From: Patescibacteria group bacterium
GTDB lineage: Bacteria > Patescibacteriota > Patescibacteriia > 2-01-FULL-39-33
DNA: 64,000 bases
Direction: 5' to 3'
Assembly (NCBI GenBank): GCA_041650895.1
Contig: JBAZKF010000001.1
Coordinates: forward strand, 209,685 to 273,684
Under the pieces are notes generated by a model, which was not told where the DNA came from, ran no database searches, and worked only from the letters and a program-made list of their open reading frames with translations. Position numbers and translations under genes: made by a program. Shown here piece by piece: positions 32,987 to 57,180 of this stretch. Positions within the stretch are counted from its first letter, which is position 1. Each line of letters starts with the position of its first letter.

Positions 32987-34030
32987 ATGAAAAACACGGT
33001 TGAACTCTTAGCCGTAAAAACCGCCGGACCGGAAATACTGGATGCGACCGGACAACCGATTGACCAACTGAAGTTGGTAGAACTGGCCGGCCGAACCTGC
33101 TACAAATCGCAAGCTAAGATTACCGCCGACTCTGCCCAACGCTTTGTGGGCGCCTTGATCAAAAGCGGCCATGAGGCCATGATAGAATTCTCTTGGCTGA
33201 CTTTCAAATTCCACCAAAAGAACTTACCCAATCTCCAACGATGGCTGATTGATGTCCTCAAGTCAAATGCTCATGTTATTGTGACGGGAGCAGAAGAATC
33301 ATTTTTAATCAGCGGTAATTTCCGATCATTCCGTGACATCTTCCGATCCATTCCTTTGAGTTTGGATTATAATGAGAACTCAATTATTTATTTGTTTCTG
33401 GCTAAGCACTATCCGAAAATTATTGAGGGCTGGATAGCGGCTGAAGCCAAGGAGCTTTACCCCAGCCAACAGGAACATGATTATTGGTATGAGAGTTGTG
33501 CCGAAGACGGCTTCTATAATCTTTCCGGAGTTGCTCTGACTGATGAGGAAAAAATCAAACATTACTGGGCGGCCGCCCGCTTTGTCGGCTCCCGCGCCTT
33601 TACCCATCAGCTTGTCCGCCATCGTCGCTCGTCCTTCGCGCAAGAATCGCAACGTTATTGCGATGAGAGAGGCTTTATTGAAAACGAATATTTCATCGTA
33701 CCGCCATCCATCGAAGAAGCTAAGTTGGCTGAGCTGTATCTGTCGCAATTAAAAGAAAGCAATTCCATGTACCAAAAACTGCTTAATCTAATGGAACAAA
33801 CCGGATTAACGGGCAAAAAACTCAAAGAAGACGCCCGCTTTATGTTGCCCAACGCCGTAGCTTCGGAAATCTGCATGGCTGGAAATTTGGAGCAATGGTT
33901 TCGGGTGTTCAAATTGCGTTTGGACTCCCATGCCCAATGGGAAATCCGTGGCGTGATAGGAGAATTCCAGAAACAATTATTTGCGGCCATACCCGAAGCC
34001 CAAAACCTATATGAAAAATTCTTAGGATAA
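32987..34030 (+). CDS. thyX: Flavin-dependent thymidylate synthase ThyX (long form, 347 aa)
   Basis: The ThyX signature RHRRSSFAQESQRY. An AAGGAG Shine-Dalgarno precedes it, and the stop of tmk is 2 bp upstream. Confidence 0.9.
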   Translation: MKNTVELLAVKTAGPEILDATGQPIDQLKLVELAGRTCYKSQAKITADSAQRFVGALIKSGHEAMIEFSWLTFKFHQKNLPNLQRWLIDVLKSNAHVIVTGAEESFLISGNFRSFRDIFRSIPLSLDYNENSIIYLFLAKHYPKIIEGWIAAEAKELYPSQQEHDYWYESCAEDGFYNLSGVALTDEEKIKHYWAAARFVGSRAFTHQLVRHRRSSFAQESQRYCDERGFIENEYFIVPPSIEEAKLAELYLSQLKESNSMYQKLLNLMEQTGLTGKKLKEDARFMLPNAVASEICMAGNLEQWFRVFKLRLDSHAQWEIRGVIGEFQKQLFAAIPEAQNLYEKFLG

Positions 34031-34046
34031 TCAGCACTTTAACCAA

Positions 34047-34072
34047 CCGTCGATCGCCATCGACGGTTTTTT
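34047..34072 (+). terminator. Intrinsic terminator after thyX (CCGTCGA-tcgcca-TCGACGG followed by TTTTTT)
   Basis: Read directly. Confidence 0.75.
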
Positions 34073-34236
34073 AGACACAAAAAAACCCAGCTATTGGGCC
34101 TGTTAAAGAATCCTCTTGGGGTTTTTTTAGACGCTATCTTCAACTGTCTTCGATTAATTTCAGGACTTTAGGACCGACAATAACTTTTCTTTTAATCATA
34201 ATCAATGATTAGTTAAATTTTAAAAAAAATCCGGTT

Positions 34237-34399
34237 TTATGCCTTTTTAGATAAACTGACAATAATAAATCCTATTCCAGACAAAATAGAAGCAATATCA
34301 TAAGCTAAAACTGTCCCATCATCAATAATATTTAGCAGTCCATTTAATAACAACAGGATGCCGATAATTATTAATGTAATTTTTATTGTCTTGCTCATA
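34237..34399 (-). CDS. Possible small hydrophobic protein (53 aa) missed by the 60-aa ORF cut-off
   Basis: Translated by hand as MSKTIKITLIIIGILLLLNGLLNIIDDGTVLAYDIASILSGIGFIIVSLSKKA. Confidence 0.2.
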
Positions 34400-34440
34400 A
34401 TAATATGTTAAATTATTTTTTAAAGTTAAAGACCGAATTT

Positions 34441-34547
34441 CGCTGAATGTATCGGCATCATCCGAAGTTGCTTAGTAATTTGGGTGTAACGAAGCGGAAC
34501 CGGATATGCCGTGTTAGGCGACCCGCAGGGCTTGCGTATTTTTGAAA
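34441..34547. repeat. Degenerate third copy of the tail region of the structured repeat family (contains the GTTAGGC core-like motif at 34513-34519), downstream of gene 34661-35323
   Basis: cgctgaa-tgtatcgg...ccgtgttaggcgacccgcagggcttgcgt aligns with the tail of copy A (35612-35655). Confidence 0.45.
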
Positions 34548-34660
34548 GATTTATCCTTATTATTAGTTTTTTGGTGGGCTTTTTATTATTGTATTTGATT
34601 TTTTTGTTTTGAAAAATGGAAGAGGGGCTGGGAGTGAATTACATCTTTCAAAACTCCTTA

Positions 34661-35323
34661 TCATTCTGGCCATACTAAACCATCTGCCGGTTCATCAGGA
34701 TAATAATCTTCCTTATCATATGATTCATTCATTTTTATGCTGTCGTATTCACTGAGTAAATCTCTAAAATTTTTCCAAAATTCTTGTAAAACATCAAAAG
34801 CTCTTTCGTTTTCCAATAAGGAAACCCGGCATGAAAAAGTACGCACATCTTTAGGTTCAGTATTTTCATCGCCATAAATTGTACCCTCTCGTGAATGTAC
34901 TTTTTCAAATAAAACTACTTCCTTTTTAAAAAATCCGTTTGTTTTATTGACTGATTTCAACAACACATCTTCTAAGAATTGTACAATTTCATTATTTTCT
35001 ACTTCGGAAACTTTCTCCCGTGGCGCAGAAAATGTTAGAGATGGATTTTTTGGGCGCTTATTTTCCTTAAATTCCGGGAGAACGGCTTTGTATGCAATTG
35101 AACCATCTTGCTTTACGTGTCCAGAACAGGAGTCTATGGTTATTATATCCGTATTTGGAAACTTTGTTTGCATTATTCTGTTAAGTCTCTTGAGTATATT
35201 CTGGATGGGCTTATCCGCACCTTGAATTTCTTCCCATATCCCTCTCTCTTCAGGAGTAATTGGCTGAAGAATTTCCTCTGGCGCTTCTTCATTTTTATAA
35301 GCAAATTTGTATTCCATGTTCAT
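34661..35323 (-). CDS. Hypothetical protein (220 aa); cassette-like gene 1
   Basis: ORF only. Confidence 0.5.
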   Translation of the reverse strand: MNMEYKFAYKNEEAPEEILQPITPEERGIWEEIQGADKPIQNILKRLNRIMQTKFPNTDIITIDSCSGHVKQDGSIAYKAVLPEFKENKRPKNPSLTFSAPREKVSEVENNEIVQFLEDVLLKSVNKTNGFFKKEVVLFEKVHSREGTIYGDENTEPKDVRTFSCRVSLLENERAFDVLQEFWKNFRDLLSEYDSIKMNESYDKEDYYPDEPADGLVWPE

Positions 35324-35471
35324 ATAATTTATATTAGTTTTTCTGCTCCCTAAAAATAGAAAAACCCATTATTACCCTCTCTAATTAATTAAAAAAATAA
35401 AATTTTCTGTCCCTGTTTATCTCACAAAACTCTAAATTTTCACCAAGATAAAAAATTTATTTCGTTGGATG

Positions 35472-35740
35472 AATGAGCCGCGCTTATACAATGTGCCCGA
35501 GCCGCGCGAGCGAGCGAAGGGCATTTTGTATAAGCGTTGTTCGGCGATGTCGCAAAGCGACGAGACAACAACGCTGTAAGCGCGGCTCATTCAGCGACGA
35601 GCGAAGCGATGTCGCTGAAAACATATCGGTTTAGGCGCAGTTGCGTCAACTCATTTTGTAGAACAAGACAGAAGCCGAACAAATCATACGAGCCTAGAAG
35701 CAATTGCGCTTAAACCGTGTTAGGTGACGTAATAATAATT
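35472..35740. repeat. Structured repeat element, copy A: a ~150-bp core with nested perfect inverted repeats plus a ~120-bp tail ending in GTTAGGT (35719-35725) beside the stop codon of gene 35743-35970
   Basis: Core IRs: AATGAGCCGCGC/GCGCGGCTCATT, GCGTTGTT/AACAACGC, GTCGC-aaa-GCGAC, CAGCGAC...GTCGCTG. Near-identical to copy B apart from a 24-bp internal partial duplication. Confidence 0.7.
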
Positions 35741-35742
35741 TG

Positions 35743-35970
35743 TTATTCAATTATACCTGCCGCTTTTAATCCTTCTAAAAGTTGTTGGTAGTCTTCTGGG
35801 GGCCATTCCCCTTCTTTTTCTCCCTTAGCGCATGCTTCGATGGTGTCTATTATTTTTTGAAAAGTTTCAGCATCTACTATGTGTTTACTTTTTAATTTTC
35901 TAAAATGGTCGACTGATTTTCTAATTTTATCATCTAATGGTCTTGTTTCAAGCCCACTTTTGTTTTCCAT
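35743..35970 (-). CDS. Hypothetical protein (75 aa); cassette-like gene 2, flanked on both sides by the structured repeat
   Basis: ORF only. Confidence 0.5.
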   Translation of the reverse strand: MENKSGLETRPLDDKIRKSVDHFRKLKSKHIVDAETFQKIIDTIEACAKGEKEGEWPPEDYQQLLEGLKAAGIIE

Positions 35971-36006
35971 AGGTATAAAATTACTAATTAATTAGTTATA
36001 TCACCT

Positions 36007-36335
36007 AATGAGCCGCGCGAGCGAGCGAAGGGCATTTTGTATAAGCGTTGTTCGGCGATGTCGCAAAGCGACGAGACGACAACGCTGTAAGCGCGGCTCA
36101 TTCAGCGACGAGCGAAGCGATGTCGCTGAACGCTTGCGTGTATCTGAAGTTTTTATCCCGACTTTAACGGAATAATTTTGATTATCAGGTATACGCTTTT
36201 AATACCAACTCCACCCAAACCCTCATCTTGATAAGGGATAAAAATTTGGGCGGAGGAAAATTGGCATTCCTTAAGGATTTAATTAACGCCAATTTTCCGT
36301 AACCAGATACACACTGTTATGTGACGTAGCCAGAA
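36007..36335. repeat. Structured repeat element, copy B (core 36007-36130, about 97% identical to the copy A core; divergent tail ending with GTTATGT at 36316-36322)
   Basis: Aligned by eye. Confidence 0.7.
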
Positions 36336-36368
36336 AGTTCTTCTTCCTTAATGTATTTTTTTGGCAAT

Positions 36369-36650
36369 TTATTTCTTAGAGTCGTGACTGCTAATCTGAC
36401 CCCAGGTAGCGTCTTCTGGTAAGCCACGCTCAGAAGCTTGTCTCTTGCGAGCAGCTTCTGAATCTACATCTCTAATCTGATCCCAGGTAGCGTCTTCTGG
36501 TAAGCCATGCTCAGAAGCTTGTCTCTTGCGAGCAGCTTCTGAATCTACATCTCTAATCTGATCCCAGGTAGCGTCTTCTGGTAAGCCATGCTCAGAAGCT
36601 TGTCTCTTGCGAGCAGCTTCTGAATCTAAACTTGGTCCTTTTTCAATCAT
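36369..36650 (-). CDS. Small tandem-repeat protein: three copies of a 28-aa unit (DSEAARKRQASEHGLPEDATWDQIRDV), encoded by 84-bp DNA tandem repeats; cassette-like gene 3
   Basis: Repeats read directly from the ORF translation and the DNA. Confidence 0.55.
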   Translation of the reverse strand: MIEKGPSLDSEAARKRQASEHGLPEDATWDQIRDVDSEAARKRQASEHGLPEDATWDQIRDVDSEAARKRQASERGLPEDATWGQISSHDSKK

Positions 36651-36846
36651 AGTAATGTTGGTTAAATATTTAACTGTTTATATTATACATAAGTTATGCC
36701 GACCGCCGAAATAAATTACCAAAAAAACTTAAAAAATAATAAAGAAATTTCTGGCTATTTCACATAACAGGTTATAAACCAACTTTTTGATTATTTACTT
36801 AAAAAAAGCTAAAATAAATTAATAAACTTTAATCCATAAGAGGGGT

Positions 36847-37683
36847 ATGGAAACAAATCAACACTATCCTAGTCAGGATCCGCTTGTAAAGTTGCGTCAA
36901 GAAATGAAATTGCGTAATTTTAGCCATAAAACGATAAAAAGTTATCTCTATTATATCACTGACTTCTTAAATAAGTCAAAAAAACAAATCAGGCAGATAA
37001 ACAGCTCAGATATAAGGGAATATTTGGAAAACATGTCTGATTCCGGAATTTCAGCCTCAACCATGAATTGTGCTTATAGCGCCTTAAAAATGTATTTTGA
37101 AAAAATCATGTTTCGGAAATTTTTTGTTGCCATTCCTCGTGCCAAAAAAGAAAAACATTTGCCAGAGGTTTTAAGCAGGACTGAGATCCTTAAAATGTTA
37201 AATTCCCTAAGCAACCCCAAACATCACTGCATCGTCGCCCTACTATACGGTTCCGGCCTAAGGGTGGGAGAAGTAGTCAGAATTAGAATAAAAGATATTG
37301 ATTTAGAGAGAATGAGCCTGCGGATATACCAAGGCAAGGGCAAGAAGGATCGTTATACGGTTTTACCGGAATCATTAAAAAGCATTTTATCTGCGCAATG
37401 CAAAATAAAACTTTCTACTGACTTTTTATTCACTAATGGCCGAGGCAGTCATCTGACTGAAGCCAGCATACAAAAAATAGTAGATCAATCGGCTAAAAAG
37501 GCGGGAATAAACAGGAAAATATCGCCACACACTCTAAGGCATTCGTTCGCTACCCATTTACTAGAAAATGGCACCGATATAAGATATATCCAAGAGTTGC
37601 TCGGTCATTCCAACATAAAAACCACGCAGATTTATACTCATGTTGCCAGATCAATGATAAGCAACATTAAAAGTCCCCTCTGA
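36847..37683 (+). CDS. Tyrosine site-specific recombinase, XerC/XerD-like, divergent from the small-gene array
   Basis: C-terminal HTLRHSFATHLLENGTDIRYIQELLGHSNIKTTQIYTHV (R-H-R-H-Y catalytic set); the box I R (GLRVGE) to the box II H spacing of ~96 aa matches XerD and is shorter than IntI. Confidence 0.85.
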   Translation: METNQHYPSQDPLVKLRQEMKLRNFSHKTIKSYLYYITDFLNKSKKQIRQINSSDIREYLENMSDSGISASTMNCAYSALKMYFEKIMFRKFFVAIPRAKKEKHLPEVLSRTEILKMLNSLSNPKHHCIVALLYGSGLRVGEVVRIRIKDIDLERMSLRIYQGKGKKDRYTVLPESLKSILSAQCKIKLSTDFLFTNGRGSHLTEASIQKIVDQSAKKAGINRKISPHTLRHSFATHLLENGTDIRYIQELLGHSNIKTTQIYTHVARSMISNIKSPL

Positions 37684-37769
37684 GCATGATCAGACTTGAT
37701 CAGACTTGATTTTTTCGGCTAAAAACCGTATGATACAAGAAATAAAACCATTAACTTCCGTCTTTAATT

Positions 37770-39296
37770 ATGACTAAATACGTACCGGTCATCGGCATGG
37801 AAATCCACGCCGAACTCAACACCAAAACCAAGATGTTCTGCACCTGCGCCAATGGCTATAAGTTGCAGGATAGACCCAACGAAAACATTTGCCCCATTTG
37901 CCTGGGACATCCGGGTATGTTGCCGGTAGCCAACCATCAAGCCATTGATTGGACGATTTTGGTCGGCCTGGCTTTGAATTGCAAAATCAATAATTTCACC
38001 AAGTTTGACCGCAAAAACTATTTTTATCCGGACCTGCCTAAGGGCTACCAAATCTCCCAATACGATCTGCCCCTGACTTATGATGGCCACTTGCAGGTCG
38101 GCAATAAAGAAGTTTCTATTGTGCGCATCCACTTAGAGGAAGACACGGGCAAACTCTCCCACACCTCTTCCGGCACCTTGGTTGATTTGTCGCGCGCCGG
38201 CACTCCCCTGATTGAACTGGTCACCGGACCGGTCATTGATAGTGCCAAGGAGGCCAAGGAATTCTGCCAACTCTACCAGCAAATCTTGCGTTACTTGGAA
38301 ATCTCCGAGGCGGAGATGGAAAAAGGCCAAATGCGCTGTGAAGCCAACGTATCACTGCAGGAAGACGGCAAATTTGAAATCATCAATAATGAAGTCAAAC
38401 CACTGCTGGATTACCAACTGAATCCCAAAGTGGAACTCAAAAATATCAACTCCTTCCGCTCACTGGAACGGGCGATTGAATTTGAAATCCGCCGCCAGAC
38501 CAAAGCGATTGACGCCGGCGAAAAACTGGTGCAAGAGACCCGCGGTTGGGACGAGGCCAAACAAGAGACTTTCAGCCAGCGAGTCAAGGAAACCGCGGCC
38601 GACTACCGCTATTTCCCCGAACCGGATCTGCCGCCGCTACAAATCAGCGAAGACAAAATTTCCCTGTTGCGCGCCACCTTGCCGGAATTGCCTCAAGCCA
38701 AACTCAAGCGTTTCGTGGCCGAATACCAATTTGATCCGGAAGTTGCCGGCATTATTATCGCCGACAAAACCTTGGCCGCCTACACCGAAAAAGTCATTTC
38801 GGAAATGATTGAATGGCTGGATAGCGTGCCAGAAGTTGAGGGCACAGCTGAAGAAATCAGGGAACGCGAAGGCAAAAAAATCTCCAAGTTAGTGGGCAAT
38901 TGGCTGGTTACTCACTTGTTCAAACATCTTAATGAACACAAAACCGCCATCAAGGACTGCAAAATTACGCCGGAAAACTTCGCCGAATTCCTGTCCCTGA
39001 TTTATATTTCTAAAGTCAATAATCTGGCCGCCCAACAAATATTGGAAGAAATGTTCGCTACAGGCAAAGATCCGTCGGATATTATGGAAGAAAAAAACTT
39101 AGGCCAAATGGAAGACGCCGGGGAAATTGAAACGATCGTAGAAAAAATTATCGCCGGCAATCCCAAGGCGGTAGAAGATTTTAAAGCGGGCAAAGAAGCC
39201 TCTTTCAAATTCTTAGTCGGCCAAGTGATGCGCGAAGCCAAAGGCAAGGCCAACCCGGCGATAATTAACAAATTATTGCTGAATAAGCTGTCCTAA
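37770..39296 (+). CDS. gatB: Aspartyl/glutamyl-tRNA(Asn/Gln) amidotransferase subunit B
   Basis: Canonical GatB N-terminus (VIGMEIHAELNTKTKMFCTCA...) and a C-terminal GatB/YqeY domain. Confidence 0.95.
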   Translation: MTKYVPVIGMEIHAELNTKTKMFCTCANGYKLQDRPNENICPICLGHPGMLPVANHQAIDWTILVGLALNCKINNFTKFDRKNYFYPDLPKGYQISQYDLPLTYDGHLQVGNKEVSIVRIHLEEDTGKLSHTSSGTLVDLSRAGTPLIELVTGPVIDSAKEAKEFCQLYQQILRYLEISEAEMEKGQMRCEANVSLQEDGKFEIINNEVKPLLDYQLNPKVELKNINSFRSLERAIEFEIRRQTKAIDAGEKLVQETRGWDEAKQETFSQRVKETAADYRYFPEPDLPPLQISEDKISLLRATLPELPQAKLKRFVAEYQFDPEVAGIIIADKTLAAYTEKVISEMIEWLDSVPEVEGTAEEIREREGKKISKLVGNWLVTHLFKHLNEHKTAIKDCKITPENFAEFLSLIYISKVNNLAAQQILEEMFATGKDPSDIMEEKNLGQMEDAGEIETIVEKIIAGNPKAVEDFKAGKEASFKFLVGQVMREAKGKANPAIINKLLLNKLS

Positions 39297-56129: not shown

Positions 56130-57086
56130 TTAACGAAATTTAGCAAGTTTTAGCGCATCCATTTGCTTGATAATATGATCATCTGATAGCGAACGCAAAT
56201 AGCTTAATGTCATCTTGAAACTCCTATGTCCGAGCAATCCGTAAAGTCCAACCAAATCATTAGTCTGCATGTAATAATTAACCGCGAACGTGTGCCTGAA
56301 CCTGTGTACGTGGCAATTAATACCTGTTACCTCATTAAGATGATTAATCGTATGTTTAAGGCCATGCGCAGTATAACGGCAATCTTTGGTACTGGATACC
56401 CAAAACGCTTCGGTCGAATAATCTCTGCGGCAGTCCAAATATTCCTCAAGGAAAGGTAATAGTTCAAGCTTCAATGGTATATTACGTGTTCGCTTTGATT
56501 TTGATGTCTCGCCGCGCACAGTAACTACCTTCTCTCTCAAATTAACGTCTGACAAATTGAGGCCTAAGAACTCTCCTTTTCTGACTCCTGTTAGATTGAA
56601 AAACATAATCATGGCCAGATTTCTTTTTTTAAGCAGTTTATTCTCCCAGACGATATCTCTGCTGATGGCGACGTATATTTTGTCAAATTCTTCTTTAGTG
56701 AACGCCCGCTTGTCTGTATAACTGACGTCTGGCCAAGCAATGCCCTTAAACGGGTTTTTAGCCAGATACTTATTTTCAACCAACCACATAAAAAATGAGC
56801 TTAATTTACCTCTGATAGTGGCTATGCTTGAATTCTTCAGCGGCCGCACAACCAATTTGTTACCAACCATCCTTTCCCGGGTCTGCGCGAAATCAAAAAA
56901 ATCTACCATAAGGTCAGAATTCAAATCACTTAGTCTGACATCGGGTTTGAATTTTAGAAGCAACTCGAAACTATCGTGATAATTTCGGATCGTCGCTGTT
57001 GCTTTTCCCTCGGAACTTCTGCGTTGTTTAACAAAGGTTTCGAATAGTTCGACCAGACTGGCTTTATTCTTTTCTTTTTGAGTCAT
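56130..57086 (-). CDS. Phage-type tyrosine integrase
   Basis: HVHRFRHTFA...LLGHRSFKMTLSYLR (catalytic H-R-H-Y region) and an N-terminal SAM-like domain. The ATG at 57086 is preferred over the track's TTG at 57110. A TATAAT box and an 8-bp inverted repeat (CTATGATT/AATCATAG) sit at the 5' end. Confidence 0.85.
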   Translation of the reverse strand: MTQKEKNKASLVELFETFVKQRRSSEGKATATIRNYHDSFELLLKFKPDVRLSDLNSDLMVDFFDFAQTRERMVGNKLVVRPLKNSSIATIRGKLSSFFMWLVENKYLAKNPFKGIAWPDVSYTDKRAFTKEEFDKIYVAISRDIVWENKLLKKRNLAMIMFFNLTGVRKGEFLGLNLSDVNLREKVVTVRGETSKSKRTRNIPLKLELLPFLEEYLDCRRDYSTEAFWVSSTKDCRYTAHGLKHTINHLNEVTGINCHVHRFRHTFAVNYYMQTNDLVGLYGLLGHRSFKMTLSYLRSLSDDHIIKQMDALKLAKFR

Positions 57087-57180
57087 ATAAAAACTATGAT
57101 TATACTCCAATCATAGTTCTTATATAAAAAAGGGGTGACTCCTCTTAAATTCGGGCTTAAAGGGAGAATAAATAAACCAA

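Follow-up and report, generated by a model that had tools for sequence, protein, structure and literature searches.

A probable recombinase-linked gene-cassette array with integron-like layout and Xer/dif-like sites in a Patescibacteria genome

We analysed a 64-kb stretch of a 957,791-bp contig of a Patescibacteria bacterium (the window), in which four small open reading frames (ORFs), all on the minus strand, stand beside a tyrosine recombinase gene transcribed from the plus strand. This locus is probably a recombinase-linked, site-specific array of gene cassettes that resembles an integron in layout and behaviour, has an enzyme and site arms of the Xer/dif kind, and is not a canonical integron. 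In relatives of the window's species, gene content is replaced at one exact junction, AAC|, in isogenic backgrounds. The junction lies in a conserved attachment site just upstream of the recombinase gene, and the arms of this site recur along the array in imperfect palindromes and in a structured element, D2, whose folds favour the strand opposite the ORFs. The coordinates of all features are collected in Table 1.

The replacement of gene content is seen in three Patescibacteria populations, P0114, P0045, and P0064, within each of which the recombinases are 100% identical (numbers beginning with L denote contigs of relatives or of other assemblies). The P0114 recombinase is 57% identical to that of the window, and in 24 contigs, drawn from many samples, the protein is identical and the downstream genes are the same. 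Upstream of it, their content is of three kinds: a hydrolase and a GNAT acetyltransferase, the hydrolase alone, or a MutH-like nuclease and a DNA methyltransferase. The D2-type variants read ...GATGTTGCCGAAC|TCCTGTTATACC and the restriction-modification variants ...TTTATTTCACATAAC|TCCTGTTATACC. To the left of AAC| the variants are unrelated, and to the right there are 0 mismatches in 6,921 bp (L286 vs L287). P0045 has two variants, which diverge at AAC|TACC..., and P0064 has two, which diverge at AAC|TACTG...; the downstream DNA was compared in two populations, P0114 and P0045, and is identical or almost so in each, with 0 mismatches in 1,741 in the latter (L301 vs L297). The junctions between D2-type variants and variants with terminal inverted repeats demand a site-specific event, since homologous recombination could not make them. 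Many contigs also break in this region: in about 22 of the roughly 40 best relatives, the contig ends 75-650 nt upstream of the gene, with downstream flanks of 5-10 kb. These breaks fall within repeated D2 copies or at the AAC junction, and an array would account for the way in which assemblies of these organisms end shortly before the recombinase gene begins.

In the window, the boundary between variable and constant DNA lies at 36768|36769 (AAC|), within a site that has the 11-6-11 layout of dif. About 95 nt upstream of the gene are near-invariant in an alignment of orthologues of 68-77% protein identity. They comprise the promoter TTGATT-17-TAAAAT and a ribosome-binding site, preceded by CATAAC-N4-TATAAACCAAC, and conservation breaks off abruptly at CATAAC. 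About 29 relatives, some with as little as about 40% identity and two of them Woesearchaeota contigs, have the motif ATTTYGnnnnAAC-N4-TATAAACCAAC or TATGCGAAC at -60 to -130, and five unrelated contigs (L003, L011, L088, L025, and L315) start exactly at (T)AAC. The inner CATAA/TTAT is conserved across sites, and in the gene-proximal site the right arm forms no more than a weak palindrome with the left. We take the left arm of the window's site to resemble the XerC arms of pdif sites, and the right arm TTATGTAAACT of some lineages presumably resembles the XerD arm of Bacillus dif. On this evidence, the DNA to the left of the ...TAAC| junction would be exchangeable, and the site beside the recombinase gene would be the attachment site.

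The contigs from Woesearchaeota, which are DPANN archaea, encode a recombinase of 43-45% identity with the same kind of upstream site (L013, 9894 and 1809; L014, ~60-110); L013 also has an exact inverted copy of the arm core 8 kb away. The system may thus span both Bacteria and Archaea.

The arms recur along the array, with at least nine copies in the window. The box TGTTAKGYGAC occurs at 34505, 35711, and 36308, and GTCRCNTAAC is found three times in the 64 kb (0.48 expected), each time within the block. Arms at 34437, 35609, 36120, and 36757 point the same way as the site and those at 34513, 35719, and 36316 are inverted, so that orientation alternates along the array and each neighbouring pair of plus-oriented and inverted arms encloses one imperfect palindrome (X, Y, and Z). 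The folded palindromes have a short stem of AAC/GTT, an asymmetric bulge of 3 nt, an inner stem, and a top that varies. Integron attC sites are imperfect palindromes of 57-141 nt, with an R'' box RYYYAAC, an R' box GTTRRRY, L boxes, an unpaired central spacer, and extrahelical bases. An attC site is laid out in this way, and two inverted Xer sites capable of folding into one would look just the same. Palindrome X folds with -14.4 kcal/mol on the plus strand and -12.4 on the minus strand. Palindrome Y has G.T pairs on the plus strand (z -2.9, vs -2.3 on the minus strand), and Z has a long interior with a 20-bp hairpin at 36255-36298 (z -3.6). On the plus strand, opposite the ORFs, six of seven palindromes are lower in free energy and richer in G.T pairs. 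The sequence of the arm core varies between genomes, and in most loci each genome's own core has an exact or near-exact inverted copy upstream of the recombinase; with the own core as probe, no exact copy was found downstream of the recombinase.

The two copies of D2 share a direct repeat of 121 nt with 99% identity (35499-35619 and 36010-36130). The full copy has a GC-rich closing stem P1 (TGAGCCGCGCTTA/TAAGCGCGGCTCA) and a near-palindromic 11-6-11 core, ATTTTGTATAA-GCGTTG-TTCGGCGATGT (35523-35550), flanked by hairpins P2 and P3. The 3' strand of hairpin P4 (35590-35619) is the arm GTCGCTGAA that ends the unit. The fold of the full copy reaches -52.7 kcal/mol, with a z-score of -8.7 on the plus strand and -6.8 on the minus strand, and that of the second copy reaches -37.4 vs -31.5. 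All eight copies tested fold better on the plus strand, with 2-7 G.T pairs vs 0-2. Being opposite the cassette ORFs, this strand is the counterpart of an integron cassette's bottom strand; the bias is one of folding, not of recombination. All homologues of D2 that were found lie on the plus strand and upstream of a recombinase (L002, L007, L009, L010, L016, and the P0114 population). They are near-identical within a genome, and L286, a metagenome-assembled genome (MAG) contig of P0114, has at least six copies in 6 kb. MAFFT and RNAalifold on the whole of D2 did not recover the fold, as loop lengths differ, and we used single-sequence folds and a trimmed alignment. Independent single-sequence folds gave the same architecture from different sequences, and the trimmed alignment has compensatory changes in 15 of 40 D2 pairs. 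D2 and the site stay beside the recombinase across lineages whose other neighbours differ.

Other origins of D2 were considered and rejected. A scan of viral contigs with GCGATGTCGC-N3-4-GCGAC gave 120 loci; because none matches D2 by nhmmer, we regard them as chance matches in GC-rich phages, and this search gave no indication of phage-borne D2. Spread in the manner of miniature inverted-repeat transposable elements is ruled out, as the copies are confined to arrays and the only two in the window are both here. Insertion of a group II intron or an insertion sequence into attC-like sites was dropped, because D2 is too small and encodes nothing. There are also shortened and duplicated forms. 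In L007 (470-530 vs 1-122), the recombinase-proximal D2 consists of the joined strands of the closing stem, its interior missing, and L298 (1-170) has a smaller D2-like element in tandem duplication. These forms suggest rearrangement within the element itself.

The second structured element, the stem-loop M3, has a covarying stem of 14-15 bp and a conserved 19-nt loop (AGAGGGGnnnGGGGTGAAT), and sits directly after the stop of a minus-strand cassette gene. In the window it is followed by CTCCTTAT, the reverse complement of the Shine-Dalgarno (SD)-like sequence ATAAGGAG. M3 is also present in L287 (~108-165; L287/L290), L022 (~100-160), L037 (~170-230), L105 (~1-75), and L301 (~245-300). All occurrences found lie upstream of recombinases, and they span six lineages, among them that of a Saccharibacteria contig. 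Apart from M3, an all-against-all tblastx of 44 upstream regions found no cassette common to lineages. The GNAT genes beside the recombinases of L291 and L002 were considered as a shared cassette and rejected because they are unrelated to each other. On the minus strand at 34636-34663, after the TGA of the 220-aa gene, we also noticed T-AAGGAG-N9-ATG-TAA, an SD-like sequence with a start-stop mini-ORF that overlaps the stem of M3.

Structure of this kind could also belong to transcripts. D2, M3, and the palindromes would then be leaders, terminators, or antisense RNAs of an accessory island that lies beside the recombinase by chance or through hot-spot effects and that changes by homologous recombination and ordinary gene transfer. 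D2 is indeed as structured as an RNA gene (z -8.7) and shows covariation, M3 comes right after stop codons, and a GNAT gene has been gained or lost between identical D2 repeats. We nevertheless think this account very improbable. It does not accommodate one exact base of divergence beside a recombinase-type site in three populations with an unrelated variable side, nor the building of D2 and the palindromes from the site's own 11-bp arm motif, nor the persistence of D2 and the site beside the recombinase among differing neighbours. D2 has no conserved promoter or T-tract terminator. An Rfam search at a permissive threshold, covering 33000-38500 and six related loci, returned tRNAs and one sub-threshold chance match (MIR158), and no family matched D2, M3, or the palindromes there.

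The main rival shares most of the evidence and differs mainly on whether single strands are involved. On this account the locus would be an ordinary Xer/dif system: the gene-side site would be the chromosomal dimer-resolution site, and small Xer-exploiting elements, akin to integrative mobile elements exploiting Xer (IMEX) or to pdif modules, would recombine as duplex 28-bp sites without recourse to folded single strands. The 11-6-11 sites with their conserved inner CATAA/TTAT fit this well, and a near-palindromic D2 core suits a homomeric enzyme. The score of the recombinase exceeds the XerA equivalog cut-off, and the gene is found throughout the lineage. The arms alternate in orientation as in the dif modules of Acinetobacter, where genes are flanked by inverted XerC/D sites (PMC6449649), and XerS is likewise encoded beside its dif site (PMC2958812). 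We nevertheless rate this account as unlikely, if a serious contender. GC skew is negative on both sides of the locus with no sign change at 36.7 kb, the flanking core genes are co-directional, and no sign of a terminus is seen within the window. The arms are present in many copies and not as a single site. The strand-biased fold, and the compensatory changes in stems that are not arms, such as P1, are left unexplained. The spacers of the partner sites also differ (CAGGTT vs CAGTGT), and two-strand exchange between duplex sites is therefore disfavoured.

The recombinase has the catalytic motifs GSGLRVGE, HTLRHSFAT, and LGHSNIKTTQIYTH, and alignments show its R, K, HxxR, H, and Y motifs. It passes the XerA_Arch equivalog model NF040815 (251.8 bits, cut-off 220). 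Against the integron integrase model TIGR02249 it scores 247.3 bits, under the cut-off of 265 and with the match split in two stretches, and against PRK15417 147.7 vs a cut-off of 435. Its top match in the PDB is the Vibrio integron integrase VchIntIA (2a3v, 176.6 bits), followed by two archaeal XerA (157.8 bits for 5hxy, and 148.1); Escherichia coli XerD (1a0p) is far lower (107.6 bits). Residues 13-184 and 196-278 align to VchIntIA 6-180 and 235-317, and the IntI-specific insertion is absent from this alignment, with 12 residues against 55 in VchIntIA, about 43 missing. By sequence, the recombinase is thus an insertion-less close relative of IntI. The initial annotation had noted the missing insertion, which the alignment bears out, and had made its reading depend on an enzyme that is not firmly a housekeeping XerC or XerD, in keeping with these best matches. 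It had also offered a degenerate integron, an option that we abandon given the absent insertion and the dif-like 11-bp arms of the sites.

Homologues of 55-77% identity number in the thousands among Patescibacteria MAGs. The recombinase is therefore a conserved gene of the lineage, and it looks like the universal Xer of Patescibacteria. Such proteins have been placed, without further study, in a 'Cand' subgroup of Xer-related enzymes (PMC8138268). The window encodes a second, more divergent tyrosine recombinase (56130-57110, minus strand, 326 aa; XerA model 105 bits, below cut-off) within a different stretch of low GC (54-62 kb, 0.376-0.416). It may belong to a separate element as its integrase, or be this genome's other Xer.

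The array and the recombinase gene are bracketed by thyX (32987-34030, plus strand) and gatB (37770-39296, plus strand). The block has a GC content of 0.32-0.40 between 34.08 and 36.78 kb, vs 0.44-0.50 in the flanks. The drop begins at the distal array end, where there is a terminator-like match at 34101-34083. The initial annotation had described three small minus-strand genes and a divergent recombinase in an integron topology with a Xer-like enzyme, and had listed a Xer-dependent module array among its options. The ORFs are there as described, and were called independently as genes in L308, another assembly of the same species; the topology gains support from the site, the array, and the variation in relatives. 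Other parts of that description hold in part. Each gene was said to be trailed by one repeat family: two copies are the near-identical D2 elements, but the third (34437-34525) shares the palindromic layout and end boxes without the D2 body. A GTT box was placed just after each stop, but GTTAGGC (34513) lies 142 nt past the stop, and GTTATGT does not match GTTRRRY. The block was thought to look inserted, but the recombinase, as a conserved lineage gene, is not part of any insertion. The folding that was to be checked is found in the palindromes and D2, with its bias to the strand opposite the ORFs, and none of the three refuting outcomes that the annotation named has come about. The 53-aa ORF, and a 49-nt inverted repeat around the 93-aa gene, were absent from that description.

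Table 1. Features of the array and the recombinase gene (positions are those of the window).
Feature	Coordinates	Strand	Details or basis
thyX terminator	34048-34072		just before distal array end
Distal array end: degenerate box CCTGTTAAAGAATCC overlapping a minus-strand terminator-like hairpin	34083-34122		sequence reading; site assignment tentative
Cassette 4 ORF, 53 aa, predicted small membrane protein	34237-34398	-	called as gene in L308/L309
Palindrome X, 89 nt	34437-34525		outer arms ATTTCGCTGAA (34437-34447) and reverse complement GTCGCCTAAC (34513-34522); inner stem GGCATCATCCG/CGGATATGCC
M3 stem-loop	34607-34661		directly 3' of stop of 220-aa gene; conserved loop AGAGGGGCTGGGAGTGAAT (34621-34639)
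Cassette 3 ORF, 220 aa, without family assignment	34661-35323	-	ORF call, profile searches
D2, full copy	35467-35622	+	closing stem P1, hairpins P2/P3 around core, hairpin P4
Palindrome Y, 123 nt	35609-35731		outer boxes GTCGCTGAA(AAC) and GTTAGGTGAC; 17-bp inner stem GGTTTAGGCGCAGTTGC/GCAATTGCGCTTAAACC
Cassette 2 ORF, 75 aa, without family assignment	35743-35970	-	called as gene in L308/L309
D2, second copy	36003-36133	+	without 24 nt of P2; core 36034-36061, P4 36101-36130
Palindrome Z, 209 nt	36120-36328		outer boxes GTCGCTGAAC and GTTATGTGAC; inner stem GTGTATCTG/CAGATACAC
Left terminal inverted repeat of cassette 1 (CTGTTATGTGACGTAGCCAGAAAGTTC...)	36314-36362		repeat scan
Cassette 1 ORF, 93 aa, three 27-aa repeats	36369-36650	-	repeat scan
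Right terminal inverted repeat of cassette 1	36722-36770		ends in the attachment site's left arm
attI-like/dif-like site ATTTCACATAA-CAGGTT-ATAAACCAACT	36757-36784	+	63-90 nt upstream of recombinase start
Promoter-like site of recombinase gene, TTGATT-17-TAAAAT, then ribosome-binding site AAGAGGGG	36787-36815	+	invariant columns in orthologue alignment
Tyrosine recombinase, 278 aa, Xer/XerA-type	36847-37683	+	profile and structure matches
Outward promoter-like site TTGACT-18-TATAAT (11/12)	36979-36950	-	within recombinase gene, facing array

None of the four cassette proteins could be given a credible function from searches of Pfam, NCBIfam, PADLOC, and PHROGs; that of cassette 4 has a weak match to DUF3784, below cut-off. 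The 220-aa protein of cassette 3 (218 aa in the public gene call) has just eight homologues, of patchy distribution, in 5.8 billion proteins. One of these (54% identity, L306) does not adjoin any recombinase, and the gene is therefore not always borne on an array. The gene of cassette 1 contains an 81-nt tandem repeat in three copies that are 94-100% identical (36391-36633). In relatives, the cargo beside the recombinase is typical accessory and defence material. It includes a metallo-beta-lactamase-fold protein resembling the anti-Pycsar protein Apyc1 (L286, 1187-1927), an rRNA adenine methyltransferase-like protein (L004, 262-1140), GNAT acetyltransferases (e.g., L002, 7224-7691), and a MutH-like nuclease with an N6/N4 DNA methyltransferase (L287, 589-2047).

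The inverted repeat around cassette 1 (36314-36362 and 36722-36770) is 76% complementary, and the same layout with other sequence is found in L004 and L287. Inverted arms and long inverted repeats around the first unit at all three loci (in L287, the restriction-modification pair), an inverted copy of the arm core upstream in most loci, and an adjacent tyrosine recombinase with an outward promoter-like site are also what one would expect of an invertible switch. The recombinase would then flip 36314-36770, linking the enclosed gene to the outward promoter or unlinking it, and the outcome would be phase variation and not gene capture. We think this very unlikely. Both orientations were never seen, as the window, L308, and L309 agree with one another, as do L287, L288, and L290; variants differ by replacement of content and not by orientation; and the D2-type units are direct repeats, which inversion cannot handle. 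The hexamers of the outward promoter occur at the same codons in L002, L004, L005, L006, L007, and L296 (57-77% identity). As a sequence match, this site parallels in position the Pc promoter of class 1 integrons.

Under the reading as a cassette array, units would be of two classes. A Class I unit would consist of D2, a minus-strand ORF, and an imperfect palindrome with AAC...GTT ends. A Class II unit would hold one or more ORFs between terminal inverted repeats of 30-50 nt that end in recombinase arms, as in cassette 1 of the window, the rRNA methyltransferase-like gene of L004, and the restriction-modification pair of L287. Once such a cassette was circularised, its terminal repeats would form the long outer stem of a palindrome. 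The recombinase would bind the 11-bp arms (consensus AYWTCGCAYAA), with strand exchange at the boundary between arm and spacer. Palindromes and D2 would offer these arms as intrastrand duplexes whenever the plus strand is single-stranded, by the same single-strand logic as the integron attC and the attP(+) hairpin of the CTX phage. Cassettes might be read from the outward promoter in the recombinase gene, from promoters of their own, or from both. A wider proposal, which we put forward tentatively as a fair possibility but short of probable, is that Patescibacteria, and possibly DPANN archaea, have a native, undescribed platform for gene capture. In it, the lineage's own insertion-less recombinase, resembling IntI and XerA, would insert and swap single-gene cassettes at a site next to its gene through folded single-stranded elements with dif arms (the palindromes and D2), a living intermediate between Xer/dif systems and integrons.

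Several points weigh against an integron-like array. The whole case for recombination is comparative. The cassette variation that the initial annotation looked for in relatives is found in three populations with identical recombinases but not in the species of the window itself, whose three available assemblies (the window, L308, and L309) have the same array without cassette turnover. The sole difference within the species is a 66-aa allele of the 93-aa gene in L308 (3749-3949), with one 27-aa repeat fewer. The gain or loss of the GNAT gene in P0114 took place between near-identical D2 repeats of 190 nt, and could have its origin in homologous recombination. The recombinase is widely conserved and apparently vertically inherited, its primary role may be chromosome maintenance, and it lacks the IntI domain that reads extrahelical bases. 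The match of the palindromes to attC boxes is loose, with R'' fitting RYYYAAC in two of three (GCCTAAC and ACCTAAC, not ACATAAC) and none of the three R' sequences (ATTCAGC, GTTTTCA, and GTTCAGC) exact to GTTRRRY. Palindrome X folds weakly (z -1.5 to -1.9), and Z, alone among the palindromes, has its better fold on the minus strand. Codon usage at the conserved YYI...KSK stretch could have produced the outward promoter as a by-product.

By current definition an integron has the IntI-specific domain, and integrons are believed to be absent across much of the tree. That they arose from Xer-like enzymes has, to our knowledge, been inferred and never documented. Our literature search found no description of integrons or of Xer cassette arrays in the candidate phyla radiation (CPR) or Patescibacteria. 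CPR organisms have tiny genomes, and how their accessory genes turn over is poorly known. If the reading as a cassette array is right, cassette-based gene capture extends to the CPR, and the locus offers a concrete model for the transition from Xer systems to integrons and with it a plausible picture of how integrons arose. D2 and M3 add two unclassified structured elements.

The locus resembles integrons in many respects. In both, the recombinase gene is divergent from small accessory ORFs that are mostly co-oriented, the insertion point is directly upstream of that gene, and an outward promoter-like site lies within it. Between the units stand imperfect palindromes, their AAC...GTT ends invariant and their internal loop asymmetric, and folding favours the strand that lies opposite the ORFs. 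Strains that are alike in other respects differ in cassette content, and VchIntIA is the enzyme's best match among solved structures. The locus differs from integrons in that its enzyme lacks the IntI insertion and falls below the TIGR02249 cut-off, its sites have dif-like 11-bp arms and fit RYYYAAC/GTTRRRY loosely, most of its cassettes come with the multi-hairpin D2 of 150-200 nt, and some have terminal inverted repeats of 30-50 nt. Its host is a member of the Patescibacteria, and its enzyme resembles the universal Xer of that lineage; the archaeal integrons described so far have a canonical IntI with the additional domain (PMC9668308).

The pdif modules of Acinetobacter share with the locus small gene modules bounded by alternating Xer-type sites (PMC6449649), and accessory or resistance-like cargo, here the GNAT, rRNA methyltransferase-like, and metallo-beta-lactamase-fold genes of relatives. 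Unlike these modules, the array is chromosomal and fixed beside the recombinase gene and not plasmid-borne, and it has one adjacent recombinase where they use a XerC/XerD pair encoded elsewhere. Its paired sites are close together and form covarying, strand-biased hairpins, with D2 in addition. IMEX and the CTX phage integrate at a Xer site, where arrays build up, and in their attP(+) a pair of inverted dif-like sites, separated by tens of bases, can form a single substrate by folding, as could happen at the locus. In contrast to these elements, the cargo of the locus consists of single ORFs of 0.3-1.2 kb without phage replication or morphogenesis genes, and its site shows no sign of a terminus position within the 64 kb.

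Finally, the locus can be compared with Xer systems that have a single recombinase. Its protein passes the XerA model, and its gene stands beside the site as does that of XerS, which adjoins its own site at the terminus; in archaea, dif is one site at the terminus without linkage to xerA (PMC2958812). The near-palindromic core of D2 recalls archaeal dif, with its nearly identical arms. We know of no cassette array described in the XerS/difSL or archaeal XerA/dif systems. These have one terminus site per chromosome, whereas the locus has many copies of the arms, structured repeats, and gene content that varies between strains.

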